Origin: an uncultured Candidatus Rokubacteria bacterium
Lineage (GTDB): Bacteria > Methylomirabilota > Methylomirabilia > Rokubacteriales > DASRDR01
Length of the DNA stretch: 64,000 nucleotides
Assembly (NCBI GenBank): GCA_963708025.1
Contig: CAVPSB010000032.1
Span: forward strand, 96,001-160,000
Direction: 5' to 3'
Made by a program: the position numbers and the translations under genes. Shown here one piece after another: positions 23,116 through 60,149 of this stretch; the first letter of the stretch is position 1; the number at the start of each line of letters is the position of its first letter. Under the pieces are notes generated by a model. It was not told the DNA's origin, ran no database searches, and worked only from the letters and a program-made list of their open reading frames with translations.

Positions 23116-23245
23116 TTTGGAACCTCCCGCCCACCCGATCTTTCGACGGCCTTCGGCCTTTGGCCCCCCTCCCCCACCGATGGACGGCCTTCGGCCTGTG
23201 GCTGGGGGGAGGGGGGGGCCGGAGCGACCATTCCTTCCCGTGTTC
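23115..23245. mobile_element. Family A MITE-like element flanked by TGA on both sides
   Basis: TCA at 23112-23114 and 23246-23248 flank the element; homologous copies at 47413, 50756 and 60018. Confidence 0.65.
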
Positions 23246-24322
23246 TCACCGGCGGCCTCCGTTGTCGTCGGCCGGACGCGTGAAGATCATCCGGCCGGCC
23301 GCGGTCTGGAGCACGGAGGTGACCGCGACGGTCACCGTCTGACCCAGGAACTTCTTGCCCTGGTCGATGACGACCATGGTGCCGTCCTCCAGGTAGCCGA
23401 CCCCCTGCCCGGCCTCCTTCCCTTCCCGAAGCACGTGGACGGACATGAGCTCGCCGGGGAGCACCACCGGCCGCAGCGCGTTCGCCAGCTCGTTGACGTT
23501 CAGGACGCGGACTCCGTGCAGCTCCGCCACCTTGTTCAGGTTGTAGTCGTTGGTGACGATCGTGCCGGATACCGCCCGGGCGGTCTCGATGAGGCGGCGG
23601 TCCACCTCCCGGATGTGGGGGAAATCCAGGTCGTGCAGCTCGACCCGGGCGTTCGGCATCCGCTGGAGCTTCTTCAGCACGTCGAGACCCCGGCGGCCAC
23701 GGTTCCGCTTCAGCGCGTCCGAGGAGTCCGCGATCTGGTGTAGCTCGCGCAGCACGTATTGAGGGATGAGCAACGTGCCCTCCAGGAAGCCCGTCTCGCA
23801 GACGTCCGCGATCCGCCCGTCGATGATGACGCTGGTGTCGAGGACCTTGTACTGCCGCTCGGGGGAGGGGGCCGATCTCGGGAAGATCGCCCGGGTCAGC
23901 CCACCCAGCTCCTCCTCGCGGCGGAGTGCGAAGACGACGCCCAGATAGGCGAGGAGCAGGGCCAGGAAGCCGCGTCCGGCCGTCGTGTCCACTTCCGGGA
24001 TGACGACGACCAGGGCCGGGCCCAGGATCTGGGCCAGCAGCATGCCGGCCACCGCGCCGAGGGCGCCCACGAACAGCCGCGGGAGCGGGATCTGCCGGGC
24101 CGCCTGCTCGAGCGCGAGGACGCCGAAGCCGGTGGCGACCCCGGCGACGAACCCGCCCAGTGCCCACGCCAGCCACGGCCCGCGCGGGTTCAGCGAGGCG
24201 ACGAGGAGATAGCCCCCGTACCCGACCAGCGTGACGAAGATCACGCTCCCGTGGGCGAAGCTCGGCTTCGGCCGCCGCTCGGGCGACTCTGGACGCTCGG
24301 GAGTCCCGGCTTCGGCCGTCAT
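23246..24322 (-). CDS. PIN and TRAM domain membrane protein (YacL-like)
   Basis: TM helices then LDTSVIIDGRI, TNDYNLNK, GYLEDGTMVV; ATG overlaps the radA stop. Confidence 0.92.
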   Translation of the reverse strand: MTAEAGTPERPESPERRPKPSFAHGSVIFVTLVGYGGYLLVASLNPRGPWLAWALGGFVAGVATGFGVLALEQAARQIPLPRLFVGALGAVAGMLLAQILGPALVVVIPEVDTTAGRGFLALLLAYLGVVFALRREEELGGLTRAIFPRSAPSPERQYKVLDTSVIIDGRIADVCETGFLEGTLLIPQYVLRELHQIADSSDALKRNRGRRGLDVLKKLQRMPNARVELHDLDFPHIREVDRRLIETARAVSGTIVTNDYNLNKVAELHGVRVLNVNELANALRPVVLPGELMSVHVLREGKEAGQGVGYLEDGTMVVIDQGKKFLGQTVTVAVTSVLQTAAGRMIFTRPADDNGGRR

Positions 24323-25705
24323 CCGACCACCAGCCCCAGGGCTTCCTCGAGCGTCGCCACGCCCCGCACCTCCAGCGGGTATCGGGTCCCCGCGACCAGG
24401 CTCGAGCGCGGCACCACCGCGCTCGTGAAGCCGAGCGCCGCCGCCTCGCCGAGACGGGGCTCCAGCCCGCCGATGCCCCGGACCTCGCCGGTCAGCCCGA
24501 CCTCGCCGAGGAGCACCAGGTCGGTCGCCACCGGCCGCTCGGTGTAGCTGGAGGCCGCGGCGACGACGATGCCCAGGTCCGCCGCCGGCTCCTGGCAGCG
24601 CGCGCCGCCCGCCACGTTGACGAAGACGTCCTGGTTCTGGAGCGGGAAGCCGGCCCGCTTCTCCAGGACGGCCAGCAGGAGACAGACCCGGTTGTAGTCG
24701 GCGCCGAGCACGGTTCGCCGGGGGGTCCCGAAGTGGGCCGGACTCACCAGGGCCTGCAGCTCCAGGAGGAGCGGCCGCGTCCCCTCCAGCGCCGCCACGA
24801 TCACGGAGCCCGGCGCCCCCCGGGGGCGCTCGGCCAGGAAGACCGCGGACGGGTTGGCAACCTGGGCCAGGCCCCGACCGGTCATCTCGAAGACGCCGAT
24901 CTCGTTCGTCGAACCGAAGCGGTTCTTCACCGCCCGCAGCACCCGATAGGTCGCGTGCCGCTCGCCCTCGAAGTAGAGCACCGTGTTGAACGAGGTGCTC
25001 GAGCACGCGGGGCCCCGCCAGCGCGCCCTCCTTCGTCACGTGGCCGACCAGGAAGACGGCGAGGCCGCGGGATTTCGCCAGCATCATGAGCCGCGCACCC
25101 GACTCCCGCACCTGGCTCACGCTGCCCGGAGCGGACTCGAGCGTCTCGAGGTAGACAGTCTGGATCGAGTCCACCATCAGGACGCGCGGCGCGAGGGCGT
25201 CCACCTGGGCCTCGATCGCCTCCACCGCCGTCTCGGCCAGGAGGAAGAGGTTCTTCGTTCCCGGCGCCCCGACGCCGAGCCGGTCGGCCCGCAGCTTCAC
25301 CTGCGCCACCGATTCCTCGCCGGAGACGTAGAGCACGGGGCCGGCGACCTCGGCGAGCGCATGGCAGGCCTGTGTGAGCAATGTGCTCTTGCCGATGCCG
25401 GGATCTCCGCCGATGAGGACCAGCGAGCCGGGGACGAGGCCGCCGCCCAGGACGCGGTCCAGCTCGGCGATCCCGGTCCGGATCCGCTCGGCGTCCCCCG
25501 ACGAGACCTCCCCGAGGGGGACCGGGCGGCTGCCGGCCGCGACCCCGCCGGCGGCGCGGGCGCCGCCCCGCCGGAACCCACCTGGCGCGGGCGCGCTCCG
25601 CTCCTCCACCATCGTGTTGAACTCGCCGCAATCGGGGCAGCGACCGTACCACTTCTGGGCCTGAGAGCCGCAGGCCTGGCAGCGGAAGACCGACGTCGCC
25701 TTCAC
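24319..25705 (-). CDS. radA: DNA repair protein RadA/Sms (one extra base near 24990, probable sequencing indel)
   Basis: C4 zinc finger, GDPGIGKST, KNRFG, Lon-like C-terminus; span 1387 nt = 3n+1. Confidence 0.93.
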
Positions 25706-27399
25706 TTCGGGCTCTCGCCGCGGCCGATGGCGGCCCGGATCAGGGCGCGGAGCAGAACGCTTCGCTGCGCCCCCTCCAGGAACGCCGCCAGGTTCTCGTA
25801 GACCGTCGGATCCTGGATGAGCCCCCCGATCGTCCCCTCGCCCGCCTCGACCTTCCCGGTGATCTCCTTCAGGTTCGCCATCGCCGCCCGGAGGTCGGCA
25901 AGCGCCTCGCCGAGCCGGGCGTCTCCCGCCAGGGAGTCGGCCAGCCGGCCGAGCCCGGCCATCCCCTCGGCGAGCTGTCGGGCCGCCCCTTCGGTGCCGG
26001 GCTGGGTCAGGCCCCCGATGAGCCCCTCGCCGCGCGCCACCCGGCCCGTCACCTCGCGGAAGTGGCGCGCCGTCTCCGCGAGGTCGGCGACGATCTGCTT
26101 GCCGGCCGGGTCGTAGAGGAGCGCCTGGAGAAGGCCGTCCGCGTCGCGCGCCCGCTCCACGGCCTGGGCCAGGCCCTCGGCCGCCGTGGCGACCCGCTTG
26201 ACGGCCCGTGCCGCGTCCGGATCGCGAAGGAGCACGCCCAGCGCCCCGTCTCCGCGCTCGACGGCGGCGAACAGCGAGCCGGCCCGGCCGAGCAGCCCGT
26301 CGAGGTTCTGGACGAGCTTGCTCTCCCCGTAGATCAAGGAGTGGAGCAGGCCCTGCCCCTCCTCCACCTGGCGCACCACCCGGTTCACGCGCTCCATGGC
26401 GCCCCGGGCCTCGGCCGCGGCCTGGCGAGTCTCGTCGACCAGCCCGGCGGTCTTCGGGTCCGCCAGCAGGCCGTCGAAGCGCTTGACGGTCTCGGTCACC
26501 TGGCGGAGAGCCCCGGCCGCATCGGCGACGGCCTCGCCGAGTCGCGGGTCGTAGATCAGCCGGTGCAGGAGGCCCTGCCCCTCCTCCACCTGGCGCACCA
26601 CCCGGTTCACGCGTTCCACGGCGCCCCGAGCCTCGGTCACCGCCTGGCGGGCCTCGTCGACCAGCCCGGCGGTCTTCGGGTCCGCCAACAGGCCGTCGAA
26701 GCGCTTGACGGTCTCGGTCACCTGGCGGAGAGCCCCGGCCGCATCGGCGACGGCCTCGCCGAGTCGCGGGTCGTAGATCAGCCGGTGCAGGAGGCCCTGG
26801 CCCTTCTCGATCTCCGCCGTCAGCGTCCGGACCGACCGGACGGTCTCGACCAGGTCGGGGCCGGCCGTGGTCTCGGTCACCTTGGCAACCGTCGTCTTCA
26901 GCTCGTTCGAGAGATCGACCAAGTTTCGCACGAGCTCCGTACCCTGCTTCATGAGCCGGTTGGTGTCGAACGGCTCCTCGGTCCGGATCTGGGCGCCCTC
27001 CCCGAGCACCCGGGCCTCGGGGCCGCCGAGGGTGACCTCGACGATCTTGTCACCCAGGAGCCCGAGGGTCTCGATCCGGGCCACGGAGTCCTCGCGGACC
27101 CGGTTCTGGACGCGGCGGACGAGGGTCAGCTCGACCTGGACGTTCCGGTCGATGGACTCGGGCAGCCGGATGGCGGTGACGCGCCCGACGGGGACGCCGG
27201 CCAGCCGGACCGTCGCCCCCTCGATCAGCCCGCCGACCTGGGTGAACCCGGCGAGGAGCCGGTACTGGCGCTCGAACATCCCGGACTGGCGGCCAAGGAA
27301 GTAGATGAGGCCGACCAGCACGGCGAGGCCGGCGAGGATGAAGGCCCCGACCCGGAGCTGCAGGAGCGTGCGGCTCGTACCCGACTGGGTCGGCTCCAT
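25702..27399 (-). CDS. MCE/MlaD-family protein with long repetitive helical C-terminal region
   Basis: N-terminal TM, MCE motifs GLIEGATVRLAGVPVGRV and GLLGDKIV; start trimmed to ATG 27399. Confidence 0.9.
   Translation of the reverse strand: MEPTQSGTSRTLLQLRVGAFILAGLAVLVGLIYFLGRQSGMFERQYRLLAGFTQVGGLIEGATVRLAGVPVGRVTAIRLPESIDRNVQVELTLVRRVQNRVREDSVARIETLGLLGDKIVEVTLGGPEARVLGEGAQIRTEEPFDTNRLMKQGTELVRNLVDLSNELKTTVAKVTETTAGPDLVETVRSVRTLTAEIEKGQGLLHRLIYDPRLGEAVADAAGALRQVTETVKRFDGLLADPKTAGLVDEARQAVTEARGAVERVNRVVRQVEEGQGLLHRLIYDPRLGEAVADAAGALRQVTETVKRFDGLLADPKTAGLVDETRQAAAEARGAMERVNRVVRQVEEGQGLLHSLIYGESKLVQNLDGLLGRAGSLFAAVERGDGALGVLLRDPDAARAVKRVATAAEGLAQAVERARDADGLLQALLYDPAGKQIVADLAETARHFREVTGRVARGEGLIGGLTQPGTEGAARQLAEGMAGLGRLADSLAGDARLGEALADLRAAMANLKEITGKVEAGEGTIGGLIQDPTVYENLAAFLEGAQRSVLLRALIRAAIGRGESPK
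26329..26800. repeat. In-frame 222-bp (74-aa) tandem duplication inside the MCE gene
   Basis: GTAGATC anchor recurs at 26329, 26551 and 26773; protein segment GQGLLHRLIYDP...RQVEE occurs twice. Confidence 0.9.
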
Positions 27400-27403
27400 T
27401 AAT

Positions 27404-27636
27404 CGGAACCCCCCCCACCCCCGTCCCCTCCCCACCTGCCGGGGGGAGGGGGGCCGGCCCCTGCGGTCTCCCGGCTTCCCGCGCCAGGCGACTCTATCGC
27501 GGTCCTACGCCCGCCCTCGGAACCCCCACCCCCGTCCCCTCCCGTCTGCTGGACGGCCTCCGGCCTGTGGCCGGGGGGAGGGGGGCCGGCCCCTGCGACT
27601 TCCCAGCTACCCACGCCAGGCGATTGCATCACGGTG
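27404..27636. repeat. Two diverged tandem units of a CCCCTCCCC/GGGGAGGGG hairpin repeat
   Basis: Both units start GGAACCCC..ACCCCCGTCCCCTCCC and end TACGCC; first half shared with the array at 35814-36372. Confidence 0.8.
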
Positions 27637-28383
27637 TTACGCCTGCTGGCGCCCGGCGAGGAAGGCCTGCACCTCGCTCTGGCGGGACTCGAAGATGGCC
27701 TCGGGTGAGCCGACCTGGACGATCCGACCTTGGACCAGGATGGCGATCAGGTCGGAGACGCTCCGGGCGAACTCGAGGTCGTGGGTCACGATCATCGAGG
27801 TCTCGGTGACGCCCCGCGCCTTCAGCCCCTCCACCAGCTCCGTGATGAGCCGGGCGTTCGTCGGGTCCAGCCCCGCCGTCGGCTCGTCGTAGAGGACCAG
27901 CTCGGGCTCCAGCACGATGGCCCGGGCGATCCCCACCCGCTTCCGCATCCCGCCCGACAGCTCGGCGGGCAGCTTCCGGTCGATGTCCCGCAGCCCGACC
28001 AGGGCCAGCTTCGCATGGACCCGCTCGGCCATCTCGGTCTCCGCGAGCCGGGTGTGCTCCCGGAGCGGGAAGGCCACGTTCTCGTACACCGTCAGGGAAT
28101 CGAAGAGGGCCGCGCCCTGGAACACGAAGCCCATGCGCCGCCGAAGCGGGAGCAGCGCCTCCTCCCGCAACGGCGTCGTGTCCACGCCGAGCGTCTCGAT
28201 CCGCCCCCGGTCCGGCTTGATGAGGCCAGCGGTCAGCCGCAGTGTCACCGTCTTGCCGGAGCCACTCCCCCCCATGATGGTCAGCGTCGTCCCCCGCGGG
28301 ACCTCGAGGTCGAGGCCCCGTAGCACGGGATGCCCGTCGAACGACTTCCCGACCTGCTCGAACCGGACGGCGGCGTCACCCAT
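27637..28383 (-). CDS. mlaF: MlaF/Mkl-family ABC ATP-binding protein
   Basis: GGSGSGKT, FQGAALFDSL, LSGGMRKRV, YDEPTAGLDP. Confidence 0.9.
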   Translation of the reverse strand: MGDAAVRFEQVGKSFDGHPVLRGLDLEVPRGTTLTIMGGSGSGKTVTLRLTAGLIKPDRGRIETLGVDTTPLREEALLPLRRRMGFVFQGAALFDSLTVYENVAFPLREHTRLAETEMAERVHAKLALVGLRDIDRKLPAELSGGMRKRVGIARAIVLEPELVLYDEPTAGLDPTNARLITELVEGLKARGVTETSMIVTHDLEFARSVSDLIAILVQGRIVQVGSPEAIFESRQSEVQAFLAGRQQA

Positions 28384-28405
28384 GCGCCTCCCACCCGATG
28401 CCCAG

Positions 28406-29183
28406 TCAGAGCAGCAAGAAGATCTTCGTCAGGAAGAAGTCGGCGATGATGACCGCGACCGAGACCTGGACCACGGTCGCGGTCGTGGCCCGCCCGAGCC
28501 CCTCGGTTCCCCCGGTCATGTCCAGGCCGTTGTAGGAGCCGATCAAGGTCACCAGGAGCCCGAAGAAGACGCTCTTCGCGATGCCCGTCATCAGGTCCCG
28601 GATCACCACCCAGTAGAAGATGGTGTTCCAGTAGAGATACATGTCGATCTGGCGCTCGTAGACGGCGATGAGCATGCCGCCGACCAGGCCCACGAAGTCG
28701 GCCAGCGCGGTCAGGAGCGGGAAGGCCAGGAGCGCGGCCCAGACGCGGGGGACGATGAGGCGCTTCACGTAGTTGACGCCGATCGCCCGCAGGGCGTCGA
28801 TCTGCTCGGTCACCTTCATCGAGCCCAGCTCGGCCGTGATTCCCGAGGCCACCTTGCCGCCGACCAGGATCGCGGTCAGCACCGGTCCCAGCTCCCGCAC
28901 GATCGAGAGCGCGACCAGGGGACCGACGTAGAGGTCGGCACCGAACCGGGAGAGGTAGACCGCCGCCTGGAGGGCGAAGACCATCCCGGTGAACATGGCG
29001 GCGGTATTGGCCACCAGGAGCGAGCGGACTCCGATGCTGTCGAACCCGGAGACGACGAGCGGGAGGTACCGGCGCGGGAGCCACGCGTTCCGGCCGACGT
29101 CCCAGGCCAGGAGCCCGAGGCCCCCGTAGTAGGACGCCAGCCGGCGGCCGCGCGCCCCCAGCAGGTCCCAGAGCCTCCGTCAT
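28406..29183 (-). CDS. mlaE: MlaE-family ABC permease (probable 1-bp insertion just after ATG 29183)
   Basis: RELGPVLTA, AELGSMKVTEQIDAL, GRATT; GGAG 5 nt before ATG 29183; span is 3n+1. Confidence 0.88.
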
Positions 29184-29307
29184 GGATTCTCCGGCAGGGG
29201 GGGAGTGCCAAACATCCATCTCGCCGGGACGCCTCGCGCCTGCGGCGCTCGGGACGTCCCTTCCTTCCGGCGGCCCCCCCTGGACCCCCCCACTTGGCTT
29301 GCTCGTT

Positions 29308-29464
29308 GCGCGTGGTGCGGGCACTCCATGGGCGGTTCAGCGGTTGCCGCACTCACCGGTGTCCTCCGGTCGGCGCGAAGCGCCGCTTGGCGTGCGCCGG
29401 GCGCGTGGGGTGGGCCGTCCATCGGCGGTTCAGCCGTTGTCGCCTTCACCGGTGTTCCTCGGTC
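29308..29464. repeat. Diverged direct repeat, ~64-bp units with 93-bp period, covering the lipoprotein stop
   Basis: GCGCGTGG..TCCAT.GGCGGTTCAGC.GTTG..TCACCGGTGT..CGGTC at 29308-29371 and 29401-29464. Confidence 0.75.
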
Positions 29465-29964
29465 AGCTGGAAGCTCGCCGTGAAGCGCTCGAAGTCTTCG
29501 GCCACCACCGGCAGCCGCTCCGGTGGCGCCACGACGACCAGGTCGTAGACGCAGCCGCGGCCCTGGAGCGTCACCGCCCCCACCCCGACCGGCAACCCGT
29601 CGAGCCGCGCGGTGAAGCGGCTCCGGACGCCGCGCAGCCCCGCGATCTCGACCGGCGCCTCGTCCACCTTCTGCACCTCGCGGAGCCCGAATCGCAAATG
29701 CCGCGCCAGGACCGGGAGGGTTCGCTGAGGGACCTTTCCCCCGCAGGTGCCGTGGGCCATCAGCCCCGCCTCGGTCGCCGGCTGGCGCAGCGCCACGTCG
29801 GCGTCCGTGTCGATCCGCTCCCAGCCGGGGGGAGGGACCACGCGGTACGCCTTGCCCGAAACCACGATGGGCCGTCCCTCGGTCCCCGGGCGCCCCGCCG
29901 CGCAGCCGATCACGAGGCCGGCCACTCCCGCCACCGCGACCATTCGCCCGAATCCCCCTGCCAT
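29446..29964 (-). CDS. Putative lipoprotein of unknown function
   Basis: Hydrophobic leader with lipobox-like LVIGC; longer ORF-track start runs through a repeat. Confidence 0.7.
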   Translation of the reverse strand: MAGGFGRMVAVAGVAGLVIGCAAGRPGTEGRPIVVSGKAYRVVPPPGWERIDTDADVALRQPATEAGLMAHGTCGGKVPQRTLPVLARHLRFGLREVQKVDEAPVEIAGLRGVRSRFTARLDGLPVGVGAVTLQGRGCVYDLVVVAPPERLPVVAEDFERFTASFQLTEEHR

Positions 29965-29983
29965 CCGCCCAGGACCAGCGGCG

Positions 29984-30185
29984 GGGCCGATGAGCGTCGC
30001 ATCGCGTCGTCGTTCGGACGGCCTTCGGCCTGTGGGGTCGTCGCCGATCCTCGGCGTACTCGGAGTACGCCTGCGGTCGGCGACTCCCTGCGTCGATTGG
30101 ACGGCCTTCGGCCTGGGGCGGACGGCCTTCGGCCTTTGGGCGCTGCTCGCTCCTCGGCCCCATCCCCGAAGACCTGACTCATCTG
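29984..30185. repeat. Family B structured repeat (minus orientation) with three micro-modules
   Basis: Reverse complement is near-identical to 54531-54711. Confidence 0.9.
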
Positions 30186-30300
30186 CCATGAACTGGCGGT
30201 TCCAAGGAACTCGGTCGGGCCGCGGGAGCACAGCGCTCGGCCCCCGGACCCCTCCGGCTCTTCCGTTGCCACTGGTTTCCGGACGCCCGTTCACAGGCTC

Positions 30301-30936
30301 TCACGAGGCGTCGGGCCGGTGGCGCCGCGCCAGCTCGGCGAAGACGCGGCGAACCGGGATGCCGCGCGCGCCCAGCAGGACCAGGGTGTGGAACCAGAGG
30401 TCCGCCACCTCCGCCACCAGCCGGTCCGGGGACTCGGTCGTGGCGGCGACGATGACCTCCGCAGACTCCTCGCCGATCTTCTTCAGAAGGCCGGGGTCGC
30501 CGGCCCCCAGGAGCTTCGAGACATACGAGCCCTCCCGGGGCTCGGCCCGACGTGATTCGATCACCCGCTCCACCGTCTCCAGGATCGCCGGCCCGGCCGT
30601 GGGGGCCGCGGGATCGGGGCCCGTCCCGCCCACCCGGGTGAAGAAGCACGTCCGGCTCCCGGTGTGGCACGCCACGCCCTCCTGGTGGACCAGGACGAGC
30701 AGGGTGTCCCGATCGCAGTCGGCGTAGACCGCCGTCACGTGCTGCCGGTGGCCCGACGTCTCCCCCTTTTCCCAGGGCGCCTGACGGGAGCGTGACCAGA
30801 AGTGCGTGCGCCCGCTCTCCAGCGTCTTCCGCAGGGCCTCCTCGTTCATCCAGGCGACCATCAGCACCTCGCCGGTCTCGGCCTCCTGGACCACGGCCGG
30901 GACGAGGCCGTCGAACCCGAAGGCGACCTGGGTCAC
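30301..30936 (-). CDS. hisIE: Bifunctional phosphoribosyl-AMP cyclohydrolase / phosphoribosyl-ATP pyrophosphatase
   Basis: [38 protein letters not shown]. Confidence 0.96.
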
Positions 30937-31703
30937 GCCGCCCGCTCCTCCAGCCGGATCGGGACCCCGCGCTCACGCAGGTACGCCTTCGCCTCGGCGA
31001 TCCGGTGCTCACCGAAGTGGAAGATCGAGGCGGCCAGCGCCGCATCGGCCCGACCTGCGGTCAGAACCTCGTGGAGGTGCGCCAGGGTCCCAGCCCCGCC
31101 CGACGCGACGACCGGCACCGGAACCTCCGTCGAGACGGCGGCCGTCAGCTCGAGGTCGTAGCCGTCCCGCGTCCCGTCCCGGTCCATGCTCGTGAGCAGG
31201 ATCTCGCCGGCGCCGAGCGCCGCGGCCTCCCGCGCCCAGGCCACGGCGTCGCGCGCCGCCGGCCGCCGGCCGCCGTGGGTGTAGACCTCGAAGCGCGCGC
31301 CGTGTCGCTTGGCGTCGATCGCCACCACGATGCACTGGCTGCCGAAGCGCTCGGCCGCCTCCCGGATGAGGTCCGGCCGGGCGAGCGCGGCGGTGTTGAC
31401 CGACACCTTGTCGGCTCCGGCGCGGAGCAGCGTGCGGATGTCGTCCAGGCTCCGGACCCCGCCGCCGACGGTCAGGGGCATATAGATGGCCTCCGCCGTC
31501 CGGCGGACGACATCGAGCATGGTGGCCCGCTCCTCGTGGGAGGCGGTGATGTCGAGGAAGACCAGCTCGTCGGCACCCTGCCGGTCGTAGGCGACCGCCG
31601 CCTCCACGGGATCCCCCGCGTCGGCGAGGTCCACGAAGCGGACGCCCTTGACGACGCGGCCCTCCCTGACGTCGAGGCAGGGGATCACGCGCTTGGCCAG
31701 CAT
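30933..31703 (-). CDS. hisF: Imidazole glycerol phosphate synthase cyclase subunit
   Basis: [31 protein letters not shown]. Confidence 0.98.
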
Positions 31704-31713
31704 GACCGCGCCC

Positions 31714-32430
31714 TCAGCTCGCCACCGCGGCCAGCGCCGCTCGCAAGTCCACCGCTCCCGTGTAGAGCGCGCGGCCGACGATGGCGCCGGCGATCCCCGG
31801 GATGGCGGCCAGCCGGACCAGGTCCTCCACCGCCGCCACGCCGCCCGAGGCGATGACGGGCAGCCCAGCGCTCGCCGCGAGCGCCGCGGTCGCCGCGAGA
31901 TTCGGCCCCCGCCCGGTCCCGTCCCGGCGCACGTCGGTGTAGATGACGCCGACCGCCCCCGCCCCCTCTGCGCGGCGGGCGAGGTCGAGGGCAGTCAGCG
32001 GCAAGGTCCGGGTCCAGCCGTCGACCGCCACCTGGCCGTCCACCGCGTCCACGCCGACGAGGATCCGACCCGGGAAGCGGGCGCAGGCGGCGTCCAGGAA
32101 GGCCGGATCGAGGGCGGCGCCAGTGCCGAGGATGGCCCAGCGGGCGCCGGTGGCGAGGGCGGCGGCGGCGGTCTCCAGGTCCCGCAGGCCACCCCCCACC
32201 TCGACGGGCACGGGGACGGCGGCGACGAGGGCGGCGATGAGCGGCGCCTGGCGCGGTCCACCGGCGAACGCGCCGTCCAGGTCCACGACGTGGAGGCGAA
32301 GGGCACCCTCCGCGGCGAAGCGTCGCGCCATGGCCACCGGGTCGTCGCCGAAGACGGTCGCCGTGTCGGCGCGACCCTCGACCAGGCGGACGCAGCGCCC
32401 CCCCTGGAGGTCGATTGCCGGAATGATCAT
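31714..32430 (-). CDS. hisA: ProFAR isomerase
   Basis: [33 protein letters not shown]. Confidence 0.96.
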
Positions 32431-33083
32431 CACGCGCGCGGGCCCAGAGTGGTAACGCCAGCCAGCCGGGCGAAGTTCTCGAGGAGCCGGAGCCCCCACC
32501 CCTGGCTCTTCTCGGGATGGAACTGCGTCCCGTAGAGACGGCCGCGGGCGACCAGCGCCGGGAACCGCACGCCGTACTCGCAGCTCGCCACCGCGAACCC
32601 CGCGACATCGCGCGGCTCCGGGTAGTAGGAGTGGACGAAGTAGAAATAGGCGCCGGGCGGCACGCCGTCGAGGATGGCCAACTCGGCGGACCCCGGCTCG
32701 AACGCGAGCTGGTTCCAGCCCATGTGCGGCACCTTGAGTCCGGCAGGAAAGCGCCGGACGACGCCGGGCAGGATGTCGAGCCCCTTGGCGTGACCGAACT
32801 CCTCGCTCTCGGTGAAGAGCAGCTGGTAGCCGAGGCAGATGCCGAGATACGGCCGCCCGGCCTCGACGTGGGCGCGGATCGACTCGACGAGCCCGAGACT
32901 CTCCAGGGTCTGCATGGCGTCCGCGAAGGCGCCATCCCCGGGAACAACCAGGGCGTCGGCGCGTTCCACGATCGCGCGGTCGTCGGTGATCACGGCGGCG
33001 TCCGCTGGACCCCCAACCCGGGCCAGCGCCTTCTGGACGCTGCCCAGGTTCCCGCGGCCGTAATCCACGACCGCGATCATCAC
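32430..33083 (-). CDS. hisH: Imidazole glycerol phosphate synthase glutaminase subunit
   Basis: DYGRGNLGSV, GICLG, PHMGWN, QFHPEKS. Confidence 0.97.
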   Translation of the reverse strand: MMIAVVDYGRGNLGSVQKALARVGGPADAAVITDDRAIVERADALVVPGDGAFADAMQTLESLGLVESIRAHVEAGRPYLGICLGYQLLFTESEEFGHAKGLDILPGVVRRFPAGLKVPHMGWNQLAFEPGSAELAILDGVPPGAYFYFVHSYYPEPRDVAGFAVASCEYGVRFPALVARGRLYGTQFHPEKSQGWGLRLLENFARLAGVTTLGPRA

Positions 33084-33157
33084 GGGGTCAGGCCTTTCAT
33101 TCTTTCACTCTTTCGTTCTCTGTTCGCCGGATTGTCAAGAATGAAAGGCCTGACCCC
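33084..33157. repeat. Perfect 21-bp inverted repeat filling the hisB-hisH spacer (REP-like)
   Basis: GGGGTCAGGCCTTTCATTCTT (33084-33104) and its exact reverse complement (33137-33157). Confidence 0.9.
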
Positions 33158-33158
33158 A

Positions 33159-33858
33159 CTACAGCGATCCTTTGGTCGAGAGGACGCCCTGGATGCGCGG
33201 ATTGAGTCGCGACGCCTCGGCCAGCGCCCGGCCGAAGCTCTTGAAGATCGCCTCCGCGATGTGGTGGACGTTCTCGCCGTAGTGGAGGTTCACGTGGAGG
33301 TTCACCAGCGCGTTCATGGCGAACGCGCGGAAGAAGTCCTTCAGGAGGTCGAGGTCGAAATTCCCGACCTTGGTCTTGGCCAGCGGCACGTTGTACGAGA
33401 AGTACGGCCGGCCCGAGATGTCGATGTGCACCGCCGCCAGGGCCTCGTCCATCGGCACGTACGACGTCCCGAAGCGGACGATCCCACGCTTCTCGCCGAG
33501 CGCCTCGTGGAACGCCTTGCCGAGGCAGATCCCGACATCCTCCACCGTGTGGTGGAGGTCCACGTCGGTGTCGCCCCGGGCGTCCACCTTCAGGTCGAGG
33601 AGCCCGTGCTTGCCCATCGCCTCCAGCATGTGGTTCAGGAACGGGATGGTCGTCTGCGCCGACGACTCACCGATCCCGTCGACGTTGAGCTGAAGCAGGA
33701 TCTCCGTCTCCCGGGTCTTCCGCTCGATCCGGGCCACCCGGCCCACGGCCGGCACGGCGCCGTTGCCGCCGCCACCGGGCCGTTGCCGCCGCCCCGGCGC
33801 CGCCGGCCGCCCCCGGACCCCCGCCCCCCCCGCCACGTCGCCGCCGTCGCCGTGCCAT
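33159..33858 (-). CDS. hisB: Imidazoleglycerol-phosphate dehydratase (start uncertain; ATG 33858 needs a 1-bp fix in a G8 run)
   Basis: RKTRETEI, DLHHTVED, PMDEAL, HHIAEAIFK, STKGSL; GGAGG upstream of ATG 33858. Confidence 0.93.
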
Positions 33859-33859
33859 G

Positions 33860-35164
33860 TCAGTGGTCCTCCTCCCGCGGCTCCACGCGCCGGCGGGCCG
33901 CCTCGCTGTGCGCCTGAAGCCCCTCGGCCGCCGCCAGCCGCGCCAGGTGCGGCCAGGCGGCCCGGAGTCCGGCCGGAGTGTAGTGGACGAGGTTCGAGCG
34001 CTTGACGAAGTCCTCCACCGAGAGCCCCGAGGCGAACCGGGCGGTGGCGCCGGTGGGCAGGACGTGGTTGGGTCCCGCCAGGTAGTCCCCGACGACCTCG
34101 GGGGTGTGCGGGCCCAGAAAGATCGCGCCCGCGTGGCGGACGGCCGCGAGCCACCCGAAGGGGTCGGCCACCGCCAGCTCGAGGTGCTCGGGGGCGAGGC
34201 GGTTGGCGATCTCCACCGCCTCCGCCAGATCGCGGGTCACGACCACCGCGCCGTGGTCCCGGACGGCGGCCGAGGCGATCTCGGCGCGCAGGAGGCGCGG
34301 GCACTGGCGGGCCACCTCCGCCCGCACCGCCTCCGCGACCGCCGGGGCATCGGTCAGGCACACCACGCGCGCCAGCGCGTCGTGCTCGGCCTGGGCGAGG
34401 AGGTCGGCGGCGACGTGGCCCGGATCCGCCGTCCGGTCGGCCACCACGACGACCTCGCTGGGGCCGGCGATCGTGTCGATGCCGACCTCGCCGAAGACCA
34501 GCCGCTTGGCCAGGGCCACGTAGATGTTGCCCGGGCCGACGATCTTGTCCACCCGCCGGATGCTGGCGGTGCCGTACGCGAGGGCGGCGATGGCCTGGGC
34601 CCCGCCGGCCTTGTAGGCCTCGGTGGCGCCGGCCAGCCGGGCCGCCGCCAGCACGACCGGGTTCAGCCGGCCGTCGGGCCCGGGCGGGGAGACGACCACG
34701 AGCTCGCGAACGCCCGCCACCCGGGCCGGGATCAGATTCATGAGGACGGTTGACGGGTAGGCCGCGCTCCCGCCCGGCACGTAACAGCCGACGCGGTCGA
34801 GCGGCGTCACCTGCTGGCCGAGGAGCGAGCCGTGCTCGTCCCGGACCCACCAGGAGCGTGGGAGCTGGTGACGGTGAAACGCTTCGATCCGCCGGGCCGC
34901 CTCGACCAGCGCCCCCTCGAGGTCGGCCGGCACCGCCGCCGCGTCCCACTCAGCCTCCGAGACGCGCAGCTCCTCGACGGAAAGCTCGACGCCGTCGAAG
35001 CGCTTGGTCAGCTCGACGAGCGCGGCATCGCCCTGGCGACGGACGTCGTCCACGATCGCCGCCACCCGGGCCAGCAGGTCGGGCGCCGCCGCGCCGTGCG
35101 GTCGCGCCAGCGCCGCCACCACGCCCTCGAGCCCGAGGTCCCCGGTCGCCAGCAGGCGGATCAC
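33860..35164 (-). CDS. hisD: Histidinol dehydrogenase
   Basis: [39 protein letters not shown] overlaps the hisG stop. Confidence 0.97.
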
Positions 35165-35811
35165 CGGGCCGCCCCCGCGCGGAGCTCCTCCAGGACCCGG
35201 CCCACGGCCCGGTAGGCGGTCTTCTGCGACGCCCGGTTCACGATCAGCCGGGCGGTGGACTGCATGATCTCCGCCACCTCGACGAGGCCATTGGCCCGCA
35301 GCGTCTCCCCCGACTGGACGAGGTCCACGATGCGCTCGGCCAGCCCGACCAGCGGCGCCAGCTCGATGGAGCCGTCCAGACGGACGACCTCGACCTGGAT
35401 CCCGCGGTCCGCGAAGTACCGGCGCGCGAGGTTCGGGTACTTGGTCGCCACGCGCACCCAGGACCACTTGCTCGGGTCGTCCCGCTCCCACAGGGCGCGC
35501 GGCTCCGCGACGACCAGCCGGCAGTGCCCGAAGCCCAGGTCGAGCGGCTCGTAGACGTCGGGCTCCTGCTCCTCGAGCACGTCCTTGCCGACGATGCCCA
35601 GGTCGGCGGCGCCGTACTCGACGTAGGTCGGCACGTCCATGGGCTTGAGGATGAGGAACCGGAGCCCCCGCGCCGCGTCGGCGAAGATCAGCTTGCGGGA
35701 CTCGTCGGGCAGGATCCCGTCGAGGCCCGCCCGCCCGAGGAGCTCCAGGGCGGGCCGGAGGAGCCGGCCCTTCGGGAGCGCCAGGGTCAGTGGCCGGGCC
35801 GGGTCGGTCAT
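35161..35811 (-). CDS. hisG: ATP phosphoribosyltransferase, short form (216 aa)
   Basis: LALPKGRL, DLGIVGKD, ATKYP, IVDLVQSGETLRANGL; no C-terminal regulatory domain. Confidence 0.96.
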   Translation of the reverse strand: MTDPARPLTLALPKGRLLRPALELLGRAGLDGILPDESRKLIFADAARGLRFLILKPMDVPTYVEYGAADLGIVGKDVLEEQEPDVYEPLDLGFGHCRLVVAEPRALWERDDPSKWSWVRVATKYPNLARRYFADRGIQVEVVRLDGSIELAPLVGLAERIVDLVQSGETLRANGLVEVAEIMQSTARLIVNRASQKTAYRAVGRVLEELRAGAAR

Positions 35812-35813
35812 TC

Positions 35814-36372
35814 GAGTCCACCCCCACCCCCGACCCCTCCCCACCCGCCGGGGGGAGGGGGGGCGCCCCGCCACCCCAACACGGTACGCGATCGGCGATG
35901 CGAGCGGGTTGCCACAGGGTGCCTCATCTGGAGCCCACCCCCGACCCCTCCCCACCCGCCGGGGGAGGGGGGGCGCCCCGCCACCCCAACACGGTACGCG
36001 ATCGGCGATGCGAGCGGGTTGCCACAGGGTGCCTCATCTGGAGCCCACCCCCGACCCCTCCCCACCCGCCGGGGGGAGGGGGGGCGCCCCGCCACCCCAA
36101 CGCGGTACGCGATCGGCGGTGCGAGCGGGTTGCCACAGGGTGCCTCATCTGGAGCCCACCCCCGACCCCTCCCCACCCGCCGGGGGGAGGGGGGGCGCCC
36201 CGCCACCCCAACGCGGTACGCGATCGGCGGTGCGAGCGGGTTGCCACAGGGTGCCTCATCTGGAGTCCACCCCCACCCCCGACCCCTCCCCACCCGCCGG
36301 GGGGAGGGGGGGCGCCCCGCGTTTCCGACGCGGTACGAGGCCGGGGAAGCCAGAGGGCTGGCACGTCGTGTC
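35814..36372. repeat. Tandem array: four near-identical ~111-bp units plus one diverged unit
   Basis: CGGTACG anchor at ~35882, 35992, 36103, 36214 and 36331; each unit carries a CCCCTCCCC/GGGGAGGGG hairpin. Confidence 0.95.
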
Positions 36373-37626
<1,254 letters not shown>

Positions 37627-38514
37627 CTACCGCACCCCCACGTCCAGCACGCGCTCGTATCCCGCCAGATCCCGGTGGAATCCGGGGGGGCGGTACCGCG
37701 GGTCCGCCGACAGTCGCGCCCGGAGCCGCTCGGCCTGGTCGTGGCCGATCTCCAGCAGGACGCGTCCCTCGGGGACGGTGAACCCGGGTGCCTCGTCGAG
37801 GATACGCGTCGCGACCGCCAGCCCGTCGGGTCCGCCGTCGAGCGCCGGCGCCGGCTCCCAGTCGCGGACCTCCGCCGGCAGCGTGGCCAGCGTCGGCCGG
37901 GCGAGGTAGGGCGGGTTGGCGACCACCAGATCGCAGCGTCCGGCCAGGTCGAGTCCGGCCAGGGGGGCGAACAGATCTCCCTCCAGGACGCGGACGCGGC
38001 CGGCCAGCCCGAGGCATTCCACGTTGGCCCGGGCGAAGCGCGCGGCCAGGGGCGACAGCTCGACGGCCCACACGGTGAGGTCGGGGCGCCGAGCCGCGAG
38101 GGCGCACGCCACGACACCGGAGCCCGCGCAGAGGTCGAGGGCCACGCCCGGCGCCCGGGGCGCGACGGCCAGCGCGCGCTCCACGAGCAACTCGGTCTCG
38201 GGCCGCGGGATGAAGACACCGGGGCCGACCGCGATCCGGAGCCCCAGGAACTCTTCGGCGCCCAGGAGGTATTGGAGAGGCTCGTGGCCCGCCCGCCGCG
38301 CCAGCAGCGCCTCGAATCCGGCGATCGCCGACGGCTCGATCTCGCGATCGGGCTCGACGTGGAGCGCCAGGCGGGTGGTGCCGAGCACGTGAGCCAGCAG
38401 CAGCTCCGCGTCCTGGCGCGCGGTGGCGATGCTCGCGTCGCGGAGGCGACGCTCCGCCTCCCGGAGCAGTCCCCCGACCCGCGCGCCGGCGCGGCAGAGC
38501 GTCGGGGCTGTCAC
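37627..38514 (-). CDS. prmC: Release factor glutamine methyltransferase
   Basis: [27 protein letters not shown] overlaps the prfA stop. Confidence 0.95.
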
Positions 38515-39591: not shown

Positions 39592-39714
39592 GCTCAGGGC
39601 CTCGCCGGGGTCACCGGACGTGACGGTCGGGTCGCATTCGAGACGGGGGTACGCGGAGACATCCCGGCCGCGCCCAGGTGCGCCCCGCGCCCGCAGCCGA
39701 GCGCGGGGTCGCCG

Positions 39715-39930
39715 TTACGGCTGCGCCTGCGGCTTCCGACCGTATTTCCGCTGGAAGCGCTCGATCCGCCCCGCGGTGTCCACCAGCTTCTGCTTGCCCG
39801 TGTAGAAGGGGTGGCACTTCGAGCAGATCTCGACCCGGACGCCGGGGCGCGTGGATCGGGTCTGGATGATCTCACCGCAGGCGCAGGTGATGGTGGTCTC
39901 GACATACTCAGGATGGATGGCCGCCTTCAC
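39715..39930 (-). CDS. rpmE: 50S ribosomal protein L31 (zinc-binding type)
   Basis: [28 protein letters not shown] start after GGAGGA. Confidence 0.96.
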
Positions 39931-39967
39931 GTAAGTCCTCCCGAAAAAGGAGAATGAGAACGCGCCC

Positions 39968-39996
39968 ATGATACCACAGGGCCCGTCACCCGGCAA
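39968..39996 (-). promoter_or_regulatory. Sigma70-type promoter of rpmE-prfA
   Basis: TTGCCG-17 nt-TATCAT with TG extended -10. Confidence 0.65.
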
Positions 39997-40073
39997 GGAA
40001 CCGCGCCCGGCCAATCGCGATCTTCGCTCCCGGGCTGGCCGACACCAGGTGCGCGGCCTGCGAGCGACCCGTC

Positions 40074-40153: not shown

Positions 40154-40156
40154 AAG

Positions 40157-41536
<1,380 letters not shown>

Positions 41537-49085: not shown

Positions 49086-50850
49086 CTACCCAAACATCCC
49101 GCCCATCCGCGTTCCCGCCACCCGAGTTGATCACCACGAGGCAGACGGCGGCCACCAGGATCAGCACGACGCCGAGGGCGGCGGCCTCGCTGGCGCTGCC
49201 CGCGATGTAGAAGTTGAAGATCCCGACCGTGATGGTCTCCCAGCCGCCGAGGGAGAGGAAGAGCAGCGCCGAGGCCTCCTGGAGCGAGGTCATGAAGGAG
49301 AAGAGCCCGCCGATCAGCACGCCCTTCCAGATGAGCGGGAGCGTGATGTCCCGGAAGGTTCGCAGCCGCGAGGCGCCCACGCTGCCGGCCGCTTCCTCGA
49401 GCGAGCGGTGGACGAGGAGCAGCGAGGCGTAGCTGCCTCGCACCGTGTACGGCAGCCGCCGGACGGCGAGGACGAGGGGCAGGATGAGCCACAGGCTGGT
49501 GAGCGGGAGGCCGAGACCGGGGATGTCGTGGTGGAAGGCCCGCACGTACGCAATGCCGATGGCCGTACCGGGGATGGCCAGGATCAGGGTATTGAGGCCG
49601 TCGAGGAGACCGTTCCCGGGGAGGCGGGTCCGGGCGAGGAGCCAGGCGATCGGGACGCCGACCGCGACGCAGATGGCCACCGCCAGCGCCGAGTACAGGA
49701 GGCTGTTGACGATGTACTTGGGGGTCTCGACGAGCACGCGCTCGAAGAACTGGAGCGTGTAAGCGGTCGGGAGGGGCGTCAGGGACCAGCCCCGCCCGAA
49801 GGCGGCCAGCGCCACGCCCAGGTAGGGCACGAAGGAGAGGAGCATGACGAACGACAGGGCGGCCACCACCAGCGCCTGGACCGGTCCCGGCAGCCGCCGC
49901 CGCTCCACCCGGGAATAGGCCAGCGAGGAGTAGTCCTTGATCGCGACGTAGTGCCGGGCGACGAGCAGGAAGAGGACGGCGAGCCCGACCAGGAGCGCCG
50001 AGATCACGATGCCCATCCGGAAGAGGCGGCGGTCCACGAACTGGACGATGTTGAGGTAGGCCTGGCAGGCCAGCAGGTCGTGGACGCCGACCACGAGCGG
50101 CGTGACGAAGTCGGCGAAGGTCCAGATGAAGACCAGGAGCGCGCCCGCGACGTAGCCGGGTGTGGTGAGCGGCAGCGTGATCGTCCACAGCTTGCGCCAA
50201 CCGCGCGCCCCGACGCTCTCGGCCGCCTCCTCCAGCGCCGGATCGACCTTCGACAAGGCATCCACCACGTTGAGCGTGATCATGGGAAAGAGGTGGAGCG
50301 TCTCGACCAAGAGCACGCCGTGGAGCCCGTACATGAAGTTGACGGGCGTGACCAGGTCGAAGTGGTCCATGAGCAGCACGTTGACGGTGCCGGCCCGCCC
50401 CAGGATGAAGACGAAGCCCAGCACGCCCACCAGCGGTGGCGAGATGATCGGGATCAGCGTCAGGTACGAAAAGAGGCCCCGGCCCCGGAACTCGTAGCGG
50501 ACCAGCAGGTAGGCGATCCCGACCCCAAGCACCGAGGTGCCGGCGACCACCCCGAGACCGAGGAGGATCGAGTTCCACAACGAGCGCAGGTAGAAGCCGT
50601 CGGTGAGGAAGGCCGCGAAGTGCGCGAGGGTCAGCGCACCGGCGTCGTCCGTCACCGCGTCGTAGAAGATCCGGGCCAGAGGGAAGAGGAGGAACACGAG
50701 CAGGAAGGCCCAGATCCCAAGGACGGCGAGGACGCCCAGTAGCTGGCTGGCGGACTTTCGGGACCTCCCGCCCTCCTCCCCAACCCCCCCTCCCCCACCC
50801 ACTGGGGGGAGGGGGGAGTCGGAATGCCCCATTCCTTCACACGCTCTCAC
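49086..50850 (-). CDS. ABC transporter permease, FbpB/AfuB-like with two TM domains (probable extra base near 49125)
   Basis: Two EAA motifs (LEEAAESVGA, LEEAAGSVGA); corrected C-terminus reads NRVAGTRMGGMFG*; GGAGGT 6 nt before GTG 50850. Confidence 0.88.
50756..50846. mobile_element. Family A element lying in frame within the permease 5' end
   Basis: GACCTCCCGCCC ... CCCCCTCCCCC/GGGGGAGGGGG hairpin ... TTCACACGCTC followed by TCA. Confidence 0.65.
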
Positions 50851-50970
50851 CTCAGAACCTCCCGTCGGCTCCCAACTCAGAGCCCATACCGGAATCCCGG
50901 GGGCTCCCCATCCCGCGCATCGGCCTCTCGCAGCCCCCAAGCTCCGGCTGCGCGGCCGTGGTGTTCCGCT

Positions 50971-51058
50971 TCGAGCCGCGGCCCAAGGCCGAAGGCCGTC
51001 CAACAGTCGCGGCCTCCGAAGGGGGGGCATCGGGGGGGCTTCCGAGACCCCCCCGAAG
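50971..51058. repeat. Family C hairpin repeat with a micro-module in its loop
   Basis: Matches 40074-40153; lies just after the ABC ATPase stop. Confidence 0.8.
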
Positions 51059-54530: not shown

Positions 54531-54711
54531 CAGACGAGTCACGTTCTTGGGGGCGGGGCCGAGGAGCGAGCAGCGCCCACAGGCCGAAGGCCGTCCGACA
54601 GACGCAGGGAGTCGCCGACCGCAGGCGTACTCCTAGTACGCCGAGGATCGGCGACGACCCCAAAGGCCGAGGGCCGTCCGAGCGACGACGCGATGCGACG
54701 CTCATCGGCCC
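54531..54711. repeat. Family B structured repeat with two micro-modules
   Basis: GCAGGCGTAC-TCCTA-GTACGCCGAGG core; near-identical to the reverse complement of 29984-30185. Confidence 0.9.
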
Positions 54712-56408: not shown

Positions 56409-56427
56409 GGCAGCCGTGCGCGACGAT

Positions 56428-56465: not shown

Positions 56466-56489
56466 CAGCGGGTCACTCCGAGAGAGGGA

Positions 56490-59208: not shown

Positions 59209-60014
59209 CAGGGGGTCCCCCGGAGCCGGAGGGCCAGGTCCGGGCGATCCGTGGTCACGTAGTCCACGCCGGCCGCCAGCGCCGCCCGCAGCTCGTCCGG
59301 ATCGTTCACGGTCCACACGCCGATCGTCAGGCCCGCCACCCGGGCCGCCGCGACGGCCCCGGGCGCGAGCAGGGTCCGCTCGATCCCCAGGTCGTTCGCC
59401 TTCGTCGCGGCCAGGCGGACCGCCGGCACGATGCCGCCCAGCCGCTCGGCCCCGCGCCGGCTCAGCAGCGCGGTCAGCCGCAACGTCGGGGCCAGGGCCC
59501 GCACGCGCTCGAGGGTGTCCCACTCGAAGGCCATGACGGTGGTTCGCCCCGCCAGGCCGGTCTCGCTCAAGAGCCGCACGATCTTCTCCTCGATGCCGGG
59601 ATAGCGCGCACCGTTCGCGTCGACCTTGATCTCGAGAAGGAGCCCCGGGGCCCGGGGCGACCTCAGGAGATCGAGGACGTCCCGCAGCCGCGGAACCCCC
59701 TCGTCCGGCGCTCCCTTCAGCGTGACCGTCGTGAGCTCGGCCCAGGTCCGCTCGGCCACCAGTCCCCGGCCCGTGGTGGTCCGGTCGAGCGTGGGGTCGT
59801 GGAGCACCACGACCTCGCCGTCCCGGGTCAGGTGGACGTCCAGCTCGACCAGGTTGACGCCGAGCGTCAGCGCGCCGCGAAACGCCGCGAGGCCGTTCTC
59901 CGGCCAGAGCGTCGCCCCGCCGCGGTGGGCCGCGATCCGGGGCCGAGCCGGGCCGGCGGTCGCCGTCACGACCAGGAGCAGCGCGAGCGCGGCCGCGAGC
60001 CGGGCGACGCCCAT
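59208..60014 (-). CDS. Exported glycerophosphodiester phosphodiesterase (GlpQ/UgpQ family)
   Basis: Signal peptide, [28 protein letters not shown]. Confidence 0.92.
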
Positions 60015-60017
60015 GCT

Positions 60018-60149
60018 GTTCTAGACCTCCCGCCCACCCCGATCCTTCGACGGCCTTCGGCCTTTTCGGCCCCCTCCCCCACCGTTGGACGGCCTTCGGC
60101 CTGTGGCCGGGGGGAGGGGGAGTGGGAGGCCCTCATGGGTCCCACGTTC
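60018..60149. mobile_element. Family A element abutting the TGA stop of the upstream gene
   Basis: Highly similar to 23115-23245, including both micro-modules. Confidence 0.7.

Follow-up and report, generated by a model that had tools for sequence, protein, structure and literature searches.

How does one and the same 21-nt sequence come to lie inside several unrelated families of repeats, with occupied and empty copies of each family in the same genome? The question is raised by a 64,000-nt stretch of DNA from an uncultured Candidatus Rokubacteria bacterium (assembly GCA_963708025.1, contig CAVPSB010000032.1, positions 96,001 to 160,000 of the forward strand; this whole stretch is called the window), in which 11 copies of such a sequence, hereafter the unit, are embedded in intergenic hairpin repeats. 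Its consensus is TGGACGGCCTTCGGCCT(G/T)TGG or, written out, T-(T/C)-(G/C)-GACGGCCTTCGGCCT-(G/T)-TGG. Genome-wide, the unit occupies seven fixed slots in host families A, B, B' and C, and at each slot the empty and filled forms differ by 21 nt (42 nt for doubles). The unit is discrete and, present or absent at these fixed positions, behaves as one of the smallest portable pieces of DNA known. It is quite possible, though somewhat short of probable, that it was copied precisely and in one orientation into slots of hairpin repeats and then spread together with its hosts.

Occurrence and structure of the unit

A search of the window with the 21-mer, allowing up to three mismatches, returns 11 matches against 0.05 expected from 100 shuffles, and the exact 11-base core GGCCTTCGGCC is found 9 times against 0.17 expected. 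All 11 copies of the original prediction are therefore real, two of them starting 2 nt further to the left (23143 and 60047). All 11 fall in gaps between called genes; the genes are those of an in-house codon-usage caller, which is crude and not an annotation (7201 calls, 79% of the genome). In the whole assembly (8.17 Mb, 71% G+C, 49 contigs, rated 99.67% complete with 8.18% contamination), the genome-wide count suggested at the outset gives 501 exact copies of the 15-base core GACGGCCTTCGGCCT and 126 with one mismatch, i.e., 627 copies, compared with 0 exact and 3 one-mismatch matches in a reversed-genome control. Two-mismatch matches merge with noise (231 vs 111 in the control), 161 of the 231 lying within open reading frames (ORFs). 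Among the 627 copies, 592 are intergenic.

The edges of the unit are readily apparent from its conservation profile. Across the 626 copies with a full 70-nt flank, on which all edge and flank statistics are based, conservation per position is 0.93-1.00 in the 15-nt core and 0.82-0.97 in the tail (+16 to +18). A T stands at position -3 in 0.78 of the copies, positions -2, -1 and +15 are two-state (T/C, G/C and T/G, respectively), and conservation is near background at -4 and beyond +19, which defines sharp edges. The bases ahead of the stem read T-Y-S-G-A-C, and a partly conserved CG(T/A)C is found 6-9 nt upstream of the unit.

The unit consists of a 4-bp GGCC stem closed by a T-N-C loop, which reads G-N-A on the opposite strand. 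Triloops of the type d(C-GNA-G) are unusually stable in single-stranded DNA. The GNA-type triloop that had been proposed fits this pattern, as the loop varies at its middle base alone; this base is the most variable position of the core (T 0.93, C 0.05, G 0.02) and explains 41 of the 126 copies with one mismatch. Folding of the host hairpins gives the expected structures, with weak z-scores (-0.03 to -2.2, one at +0.95). The tandem double reported at 30098-30139 is real, and the whole genome contains 26 tandem arrays (24 doubles, 2 triples) with a period of 20-21 nt. Neighboring units within 400 nt lie on the same strand in 192 cases and on opposite strands in 2. An intrinsic terminator can be discarded, since the stem is followed by T-K-T-G-G with no run of T and the unit occurs in both orientations to transcription. 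At the gathering score, an Rfam search of the window gives no match to the unit and finds only 5 tRNAs. None of the 7 papers listed by a full-text search for the 11-mer core is on bacteria; the REP supplement tables of PMC3733652 and PMC2817692 might hold a similar sequence. A second context of the core, GGCATCCGGCCTTCGGCCTCTGGCAT, is present in 13 copies genome-wide, with GGCCTTCGGCC in common and different shoulders.

Nesting and slot states

Clustering of the 24 nt on each side of the unit across the 626 copies leaves only 15 with a unique flank on both sides; about 5 of these are chance near-matches in ORFs, and most of the others are decayed host copies. The original description of the unit as found only nested in other repeats is thus nearly true genome-wide, although not strictly. 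The largest context, A2, is the apical loop of the CCCCCCTCCCCC/GGGGGGAGGGGG hairpin of family A (115 copies), and A1 lies 16 nt upstream of the same hairpin (49 copies). Contexts B1 and B2 flank the long central hairpin of family B on either side (36 and 87 copies), Bp1 and Bp2 are two spots in the B' variant (42 and 19 copies), and context C is the tip of the family C hairpin (29 copies).

Slot lengths, taken as the distance between anchors placed in host sequence only, fall into discrete classes. Slot B1 measures 19 nt in 39 copies and 40 nt in 33; B2, 19 nt in 60, 40 nt in 64 and 61 nt in 4; Bp1, 19 nt in 42, 40 nt in 28 and 60-61 nt in 4; Bp2, 19 nt in 46 and 40 nt in 18; and C, 19 nt in 31 and 40 nt in 21. 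Slot A1 is 9 nt long in 118 copies and 30 nt in 43. In 312 family A elements whose orientation was set by the GGAGG side, the A2 loop has 7 nt in 203 and 27-30 nt in 86. The slot states combine freely in both families. For family B, the states (B1,B2) are 00 in 53 elements, 01 in 23, 10 in 21, 11 in 44 and 12 in 4; for family A, the states (A1,A2) are 00 in 205, 01 in 54, 10 in 17, 11 in 31, 21 in 4 and 20 in 1. The unit has the same orientation in 89 of 90 long A2 loops. Clean insertion of 21 nt into an otherwise unchanged host is represented by ACCCA^CC (ACCCA + unit + CC), and the 3' junction is always exact, the 5' junction being fuzzy by 2-3 nt.

The empty and filled pairs proposed for the window fared differently. 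The family A loops (ACCCACT near 50795 vs ACCGA + unit + CT near 23175) and the neighboring hairpin pair, in which an empty loop ACCTGCC at 27425-27453 faces a filled one at 27534-27585, are as described. The presumed empty family B element at 829-921 does carry both empty-slot sequences, but belongs to a related subfamily that is only partly alignable with filled B. The site near 40083, put forward as an empty family C, is only weakly similar to the copy at 50982; true empty C elements, with the 19-nt slot, number 31 elsewhere in the genome.

A 54-nt hairpin unit converts family B into B' (for example, in the window region 916-964) and has 47 near-full copies. Unlike the 21-mer, nearly all of its copies lie in a single B context, which indicates that nesting in multiple hosts is special to the 21-mer.

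Relatives and near-duplicate contigs

The exact core is present in 14 of 15 genomes of the sister genus (7-68 copies each; the genome that lacks it is 71% complete), and occurs 0-1 times in 25 further relatives, which represent five more genera of the same family and, with 20 genomes, further families of the order. IspD is 68-71% identical between this genome and its family relatives, the sister genus included. The hosts behave differently from the unit. The center of family B, with 132 copies here, is essentially missing in 40 relatives, where two single 3-mismatch matches were found. The sister genus has an element of its own, ~56 nt long and absent from this genome, whose 3' end is the unit. 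Within this element there is a further slot, either empty or occupied by a clean insert of 21 nt (CTACCCT^GGCTCC), and half-unit arrays, (CGGCCTGTGG)n and (GATCGGACGG....)n, adjoin the unit in sister-genus loci. The occurrence of the unit in two genera with different hosts indicates that it is older and more widespread than any host and that nesting arose in two lineages. Descent of all hosts from one ancestral composite that already held the unit, the alternative raised together with the original prediction, does not agree with host B being confined to this genome while the unit sits in other hosts in the sister genus.

Separately, the ~56-nt element (loci L005, L015, L017, L082, L114 and others) is bounded on both sides by GCTCA(C/T); its complement, the hexamer (A/G)TGAGC, resembles a start codon and also stands at the beginning of the adjoining gene. 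Among the matches listed for contigs of public collections, Candidatus Rokubacteria or Methylomirabilota appear in 48 of 60 stretches, other taxa in 9 (mostly single matches inside genes) and "uncultured bacterium" in 3. Two contigs entitled as metagenome-assembled genomes (MAGs) of other groups, L104 (Actinomycetota MAG) and L072 (Myxococcaceae MAG), carry the unit, L104 with a Rokubacteria-type host; mis-binning is possible.

Six small contigs of the assembly (C33, C36, C39, C40, C41 and C46) are collinear with, and 88-99% identical to, parts of large contigs, and probably stem from a second strain binned together with the first, which agrees with the contamination estimate of 8.18%. Their alignments (182 kb) contain 3 unit sites in common and 4 that differ, the four being located at two loci; two more apparently one-sided units are chance matches within genes, with 2 mismatches. 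At C17/C41, both slots of a family A element are empty on one contig and filled on the other, with identical host ends and coding flanks. At C13/C40, the same two states are found, and the whole element has diverged between coding flanks that are 100% identical. Neither 19 metagenome loci with an MlaD-like protein (best 83% identity, partial) nor 20 ispD loci of relatives contain a unit or a family A hairpin, both sets being too distant. Public soil runs cover part of window 22400-30400 in 20 cases and show that this species or its closest relatives occur there at ~95-97% identity, and the contigs of four such runs over window 22000-41900 break at every repeat, none bridging a slot.

Orientation to genes and transcription

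The hosts of the unit have a strongly preferred orientation to the surrounding genes. In co-directional gaps, the A2 unit is antisense in 86 cases and sense in 5, and the B2 unit is sense in 65 and antisense in 4. Overall, the unit runs against transcription in family A and along with it in families B and C, which makes a single RNA-level role for it unlikely. Divergent gaps, which account for 21% of the intergenic length, hold 30 of the 626 copies.

Family A elements carry GGAGG on the transcribed strand (in the window, for example, at 23118-23130 and 60021-60035). A start codon that opens at least 80 codons lies 3-21 nt downstream in 138 of 301 family A elements, compared with 62 of 312 on the control side. 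This excess suggests that many family A copies may supply a ribosome-binding site.

Comparison with known repeats

The closest known counterparts are the small dispersed repeats (SDRs) of cyanobacteria of the Nostocaceae. Elhai et al., in Genome Res 18:1484 of 2008, are said to have described SDR1-8 of Nostoc punctiforme and other Nostocaceae, reportedly 21-27 nt long, hairpin-forming and often nested in other repeats. To our knowledge, no transposase is known for them. The unit, with its 21 nt and sharp edges, lies within this size range, and it resembles the SDRs in sitting precisely in other repeats that have empty counterparts (seven slots, clean inserts). The literature describes SDRs as ~20 nt long, dispersed, possibly mobile and also tandemly repeated (PMC2884548), and SDR5 as inserted precisely between bases 3 and 4 of HIP1, another repeated motif (PMC4390886); SDRs and REPs with RAYT are also treated by Bertels and Rainey 2011 (PMC3116915). 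The likeness is one of description, and there are differences: the unit belongs to Rokubacteria, whereas PMC5861425 reports SDRs only from Nostocaceae, and the repeats that carry it are long, GC-rich hairpins whose orientation follows that of the genes, one unit serving at least seven slots.

Repetitive extragenic palindromes (REPs), with their composite forms (bacterial interspersed mosaic elements, BIMEs, and REPINs), are likewise short, GC-rich, imperfect palindromes with hundreds of extragenic copies, mostly between co-directional or convergent genes and in mosaic blocks with other motifs. REPs associated with a tyrosine transposase (RAYT) have, as described by Nunvar et al. 2010 (PMC2817692), a conserved GT(A/G)G head that adjoins the stem on its 5' side. 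The unit has no such head, T-Y-S-G-A-C standing ahead of a stem of only 4 bp; its neighbors are direct (192 vs 2) rather than inverted doublets or alternating copies, no RAYT is present in this genome, and no gene is flanked by inverted units in the RAYT manner. A REP/RAYT system is ruled out by the head, the absence of Y1/RAYT, the direct neighbors and the housekeeping genes between inverted units. The REPs of the CGTC type, described as lacking a dedicated transposase, share with the unit the partly conserved CG(T/A)C; their reported features are stems of 8-9 bp whose first pairs are A/T, loops of 4-5 nt, a CCA tail and an arrangement in head-to-head dimers (PMC3733652). They are excluded by the 4-bp GGCC stem, the 3-nt loop, the TGG tail on the same strand as GACG and the direct copies of the unit. 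A miniature inverted-repeat transposable element (MITE), which would also be short, non-coding, repeated and possibly non-autonomous, can be dismissed as well: there are no terminal inverted repeats beyond the 4-bp stem and no target-site duplication, and the unit is several times shorter than typical MITEs.

The earlier opinion that no element of this kind had been described was too strong. In addition to the ~20-nt SDRs of Nostocaceae (PMC2884548), REPs regularly inserted within other palindromic repeats have been described, namely T. roseum GTAG-23, A. variabilis GTAG-15 and H. neapolitanus CGTC-1 (Di Nocera, De Gregorio and Rocco 2013, PMC3733652). The unit would extend a known class of very small nested repeats, and its mechanism is apparently not of RAYT type here.

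Origin of the nested arrangement

Copying of the unit into its hosts would proceed as follows. The unit would enter at least seven fixed slots of lineage-specific intergenic hairpin repeats (A, B, B' and C, and the 56-nt host of the sister genus) by precise, orientation-specific copy-in at the apical loops or junctions of host hairpins. Its copies would then spread passively through amplification of the host repeats, double locally by slippage with a period of 20-21, and be shuffled between hundreds of near-identical hosts by recombination or gene conversion. The direction of change would presumably be gain rather than loss, single strands or hairpins would be the targets, and a trans-acting protein other than a RAYT/Y1 transposase of this genome would be involved. 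What speaks for repeated entry is the variety at two slots. At B2, the dinucleotide immediately 5' of the unit takes at least six forms (CT 27, CA 20, GA 12, GG 7, GT 6, TG 5) in a host whose other positions are each conserved to at least 90%, and the A2 loops contain several unit variants and lengths of 27-30 nt, which together indicate several separate fill events. Some B2 dinucleotides are typical of other slots (GA of Bp1, GT of B1, TG of C), suggesting that units were copied between slots together with two extra bases. The original notion of an ultra-short inserted unit is thus sound as to its discreteness, its fixed slots in several unrelated hosts and the 21-nt differences, although the enzymes proposed for it were not found. 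A bolder form of the same reading, which we regard as doubtful, is that the 21-mer is truly mobile and represents the smallest class of mobile DNA. A conserved protein of host or element, not of the HUH type and as yet unrecognized, would copy it, always the same way round, into the unpaired tips or junctions of hairpin repeats when these are extruded; this protein would be common to both Rokubacteria genera that carry the unit and missing from unit-free relatives.

Several results weigh against copying into hosts. There are almost no copies in unique DNA (15/626). Alignment of filled and empty forms, recommended at the outset, shows that at 5 of 7 slots the filled form replaces 1-5 host nt on the 5' side and is not a clean insert, and no target duplication is present at any of the seven slots. 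In each of slots A1, B1, Bp2 and C, a single unit variant and a single junction predominate, the pattern to be expected from one filling followed by copying along with the host; Bp1 has mainly one junction (GA 32/42) but mixed unit variants (TCG..GGGG 16/42). The number of primary events may therefore be small. Host diversity is equal for filled and empty copies (permutation p 0.12-0.91, with diversity values inflated by windows that ran into unique flanks), and gains and losses cannot be polarized from it. In nearest-neighbor folding, the unit alone is indistinguishable from shuffles (z -1.1 to -1.4, in a model without a GNA-triloop term). The presence/absence differences looked for between relatives do exist at the two orthologous loci, but both loci differ at both slots at once and the whole element has diverged at C13/C40, which looks like replacement of an element rather than hopping of the unit. 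These differences show fast turnover, and replacement by another copy looks at least as fitting as unit movement.

The enzyme search adds to these objections. An HUH/REP-associated tyrosine transposase (RAYT/Y1), a DUF559 nuclease and a reverse transcriptase had been named as possible agents, and this genome, at 99.67% completeness, has 0 profile matches for PF01797 (Y1_Tnp), PF00078 (RVT_1), PF04480 (DUF559) and PF07282 (TnpB). The 10 matches to PF02371 (IS110) have no unit within 2.5 kb, and the three weak fragments of PF04986 (Y2_Tnp; 27-33 bits) none within 6 kb. Y1 genes are present in 9 of 15 sister-genus genomes; the one examined is flanked by unrelated 42-nt inverted repeats and no unit, and neither its protein (tblastn) nor these repeats have a match in this genome. 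Single genes lie between two units in 33 pairs, 13 inverted and 20 direct; a Pfam scan, which covered the inverted pairs alone, assigns the 13 genes to 13 unrelated families with housekeeping roles, so that they can be set aside as mobility genes.

The greater age of the unit relative to its hosts can also be read in the opposite sense, with the 21-mer as the primordial element around which hosts were built as mosaics, as BIMEs around REPs, the empty forms being amplified losses and no insertion into pre-existing hairpins having taken place. The terminal position of the unit in the sister-genus host, where it is no internal insert, and the several slots with one dominant variant agree with this order of events, as do the family A elements without the C-rich arm, since recombination between direct units deletes the intervening segment. 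However, seven independent net losses of exactly 21 nt would be needed with no flanking direct repeats as a guide, the empty copies are the majority and highly uniform (57 of 60 empty B2 copies are identical), at clean sites the empty and filled forms agree at every base on either side of the 21-nt gap, and the sister-genus host has an internal empty/filled slot as well; we consider mosaic assembly around the unit rather unlikely. Somewhat less likely still is that the unit has no dedicated mobility and is a selected motif, such as the target of an abundant protein that binds DNA or RNA, or a transcript-stabilizing hairpin, carried from repeat to repeat by nothing more than recombination, gene conversion and slippage. 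The core is 98-100% identical across two genera whose IspD proteins share 68-71%, a conservation that would be unusual for selfish REPs, described as species-specific (PMC2817692). The fixed orientation of the hosts to transcription, the avoidance of divergent gaps, the whole-element replacement at orthologous loci and the half-unit arrays next to the unit in relatives point the same way. On the other hand, the opposite orientation of the unit in family A and in families B and C is difficult to reconcile with one RNA-level role, the host families have no common flank homology that could guide conversion between them, and Rfam offers no window match besides the tRNAs.

The asymmetry of the junctions, exact at the 3' end and variable at the 5' end with loop lengths of 27-30 nt, would also be expected if the tips of extruded hairpins were cleaved and the breaks mended by a template switch to an ectopic unit, with an exact start and a ragged rejoining; the B2 dinucleotides shared with Bp1 (GA), B1 (GT) and C (TG) look as if two extra bases had been copied in this way. 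Such a by-product of palindrome repair is nevertheless highly improbable as the explanation, because it accounts neither for the choice of this 21-mer alone nor for its fixed orientation, and because slots B1 and B2, according to folding, are not apical loops.

If the unit is indeed moved by a protein, that protein would recognize a 21-nt hairpin and place it with single-base precision in structured DNA without a known transposase fold, an activity that would be new and might serve as a tool. Without such movement, the unit would be a structural or binding motif of an uncultured soil phylum, conserved to an unusual depth and present in hundreds of operon spacers and 5' leaders. In either case, the slot states (0, 1, 2 or 3 copies) would provide fast-changing markers for strain typing in Rokubacteria, and very small nested repeats, which PMC5861425 places in Nostocaceae alone, would be extended to a second phylum.

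Features of the window

The units and host elements of the window are collected in Table 1.

Table 1. Units and host elements in the window (positions counted from its first nucleotide)
Feature	Position	Strand
B-like element, empty slots GTCGTCCTCGGTCGTCG and TGCGTCCTAGGGCTGCTCGG; related subfamily, not the family of 29990-30163	815..964	-
Family A host, both slots filled; between PIN-TRAM gene and ispD; GGAGG on the transcribed (-) strand	23118..23218	+
21-nt unit of variant TCGAC...TTTGG in slot A1, family A	23143..23163	+
21-nt unit, slot A2, apical loop of CCCCCCTCCCCC/GGGGGGAGGGGG hairpin	23181..23201	+
CCCCTCCCC-type hairpin, empty 7-nt loop ACCTGCC	27425..27453	+
21-nt unit, loop variant TCC, in the loop of the neighboring CCCCTCCC hairpin (27534-27585)	27550..27570	+
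Family B host; slot B1 filled, slot B2 with tandem double	29990..30163	+
21-nt unit, slot B1	30015..30035	+
21-nt unit, slot B2, first of tandem pair	30098..30118	+
21-nt unit, slot B2, second of tandem pair	30119..30139	+
Family A host, both slots empty, loop ACCCACT	50759..50816	+
Family C host, filled	50959..51027	-
21-nt unit, tip of family C hairpin	50982..51002	-
Family B host, both slots filled once	54553..54705	-
21-nt unit, slot B2	54577..54597	-
21-nt unit, slot B1, loop variant CTC	54660..54680	-
Family A host, both slots filled; directly upstream of GDPD gene start	60021..60120	+
21-nt unit, slot A1, degenerate 3' tail, 3 mismatches	60047..60067	+
21-nt unit, slot A2 (hairpin loop)	60086..60106	+

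At window 23110-23245, the PIN-TRAM gene and ispD, which form one open frame of ~600 aa in most family relatives, are split by a 136-nt gap filled by the family A element. A tandem array at 35823-36320 consists of 4.4 copies of a 111-nt unit (97% matches), each repeat holding an empty CCCCTCCCC hairpin with the loop ACCCGCC. The array follows a called gene (35161-35811) and lies in a region, 35812-36372, that the crude caller left uncalled, though ORFs are listed there. Further upstream in the window, at 17563-19646, five tRNA genes are located on the minus strand, downstream of a block of genes of ribosomal-protein/rpoBC size.

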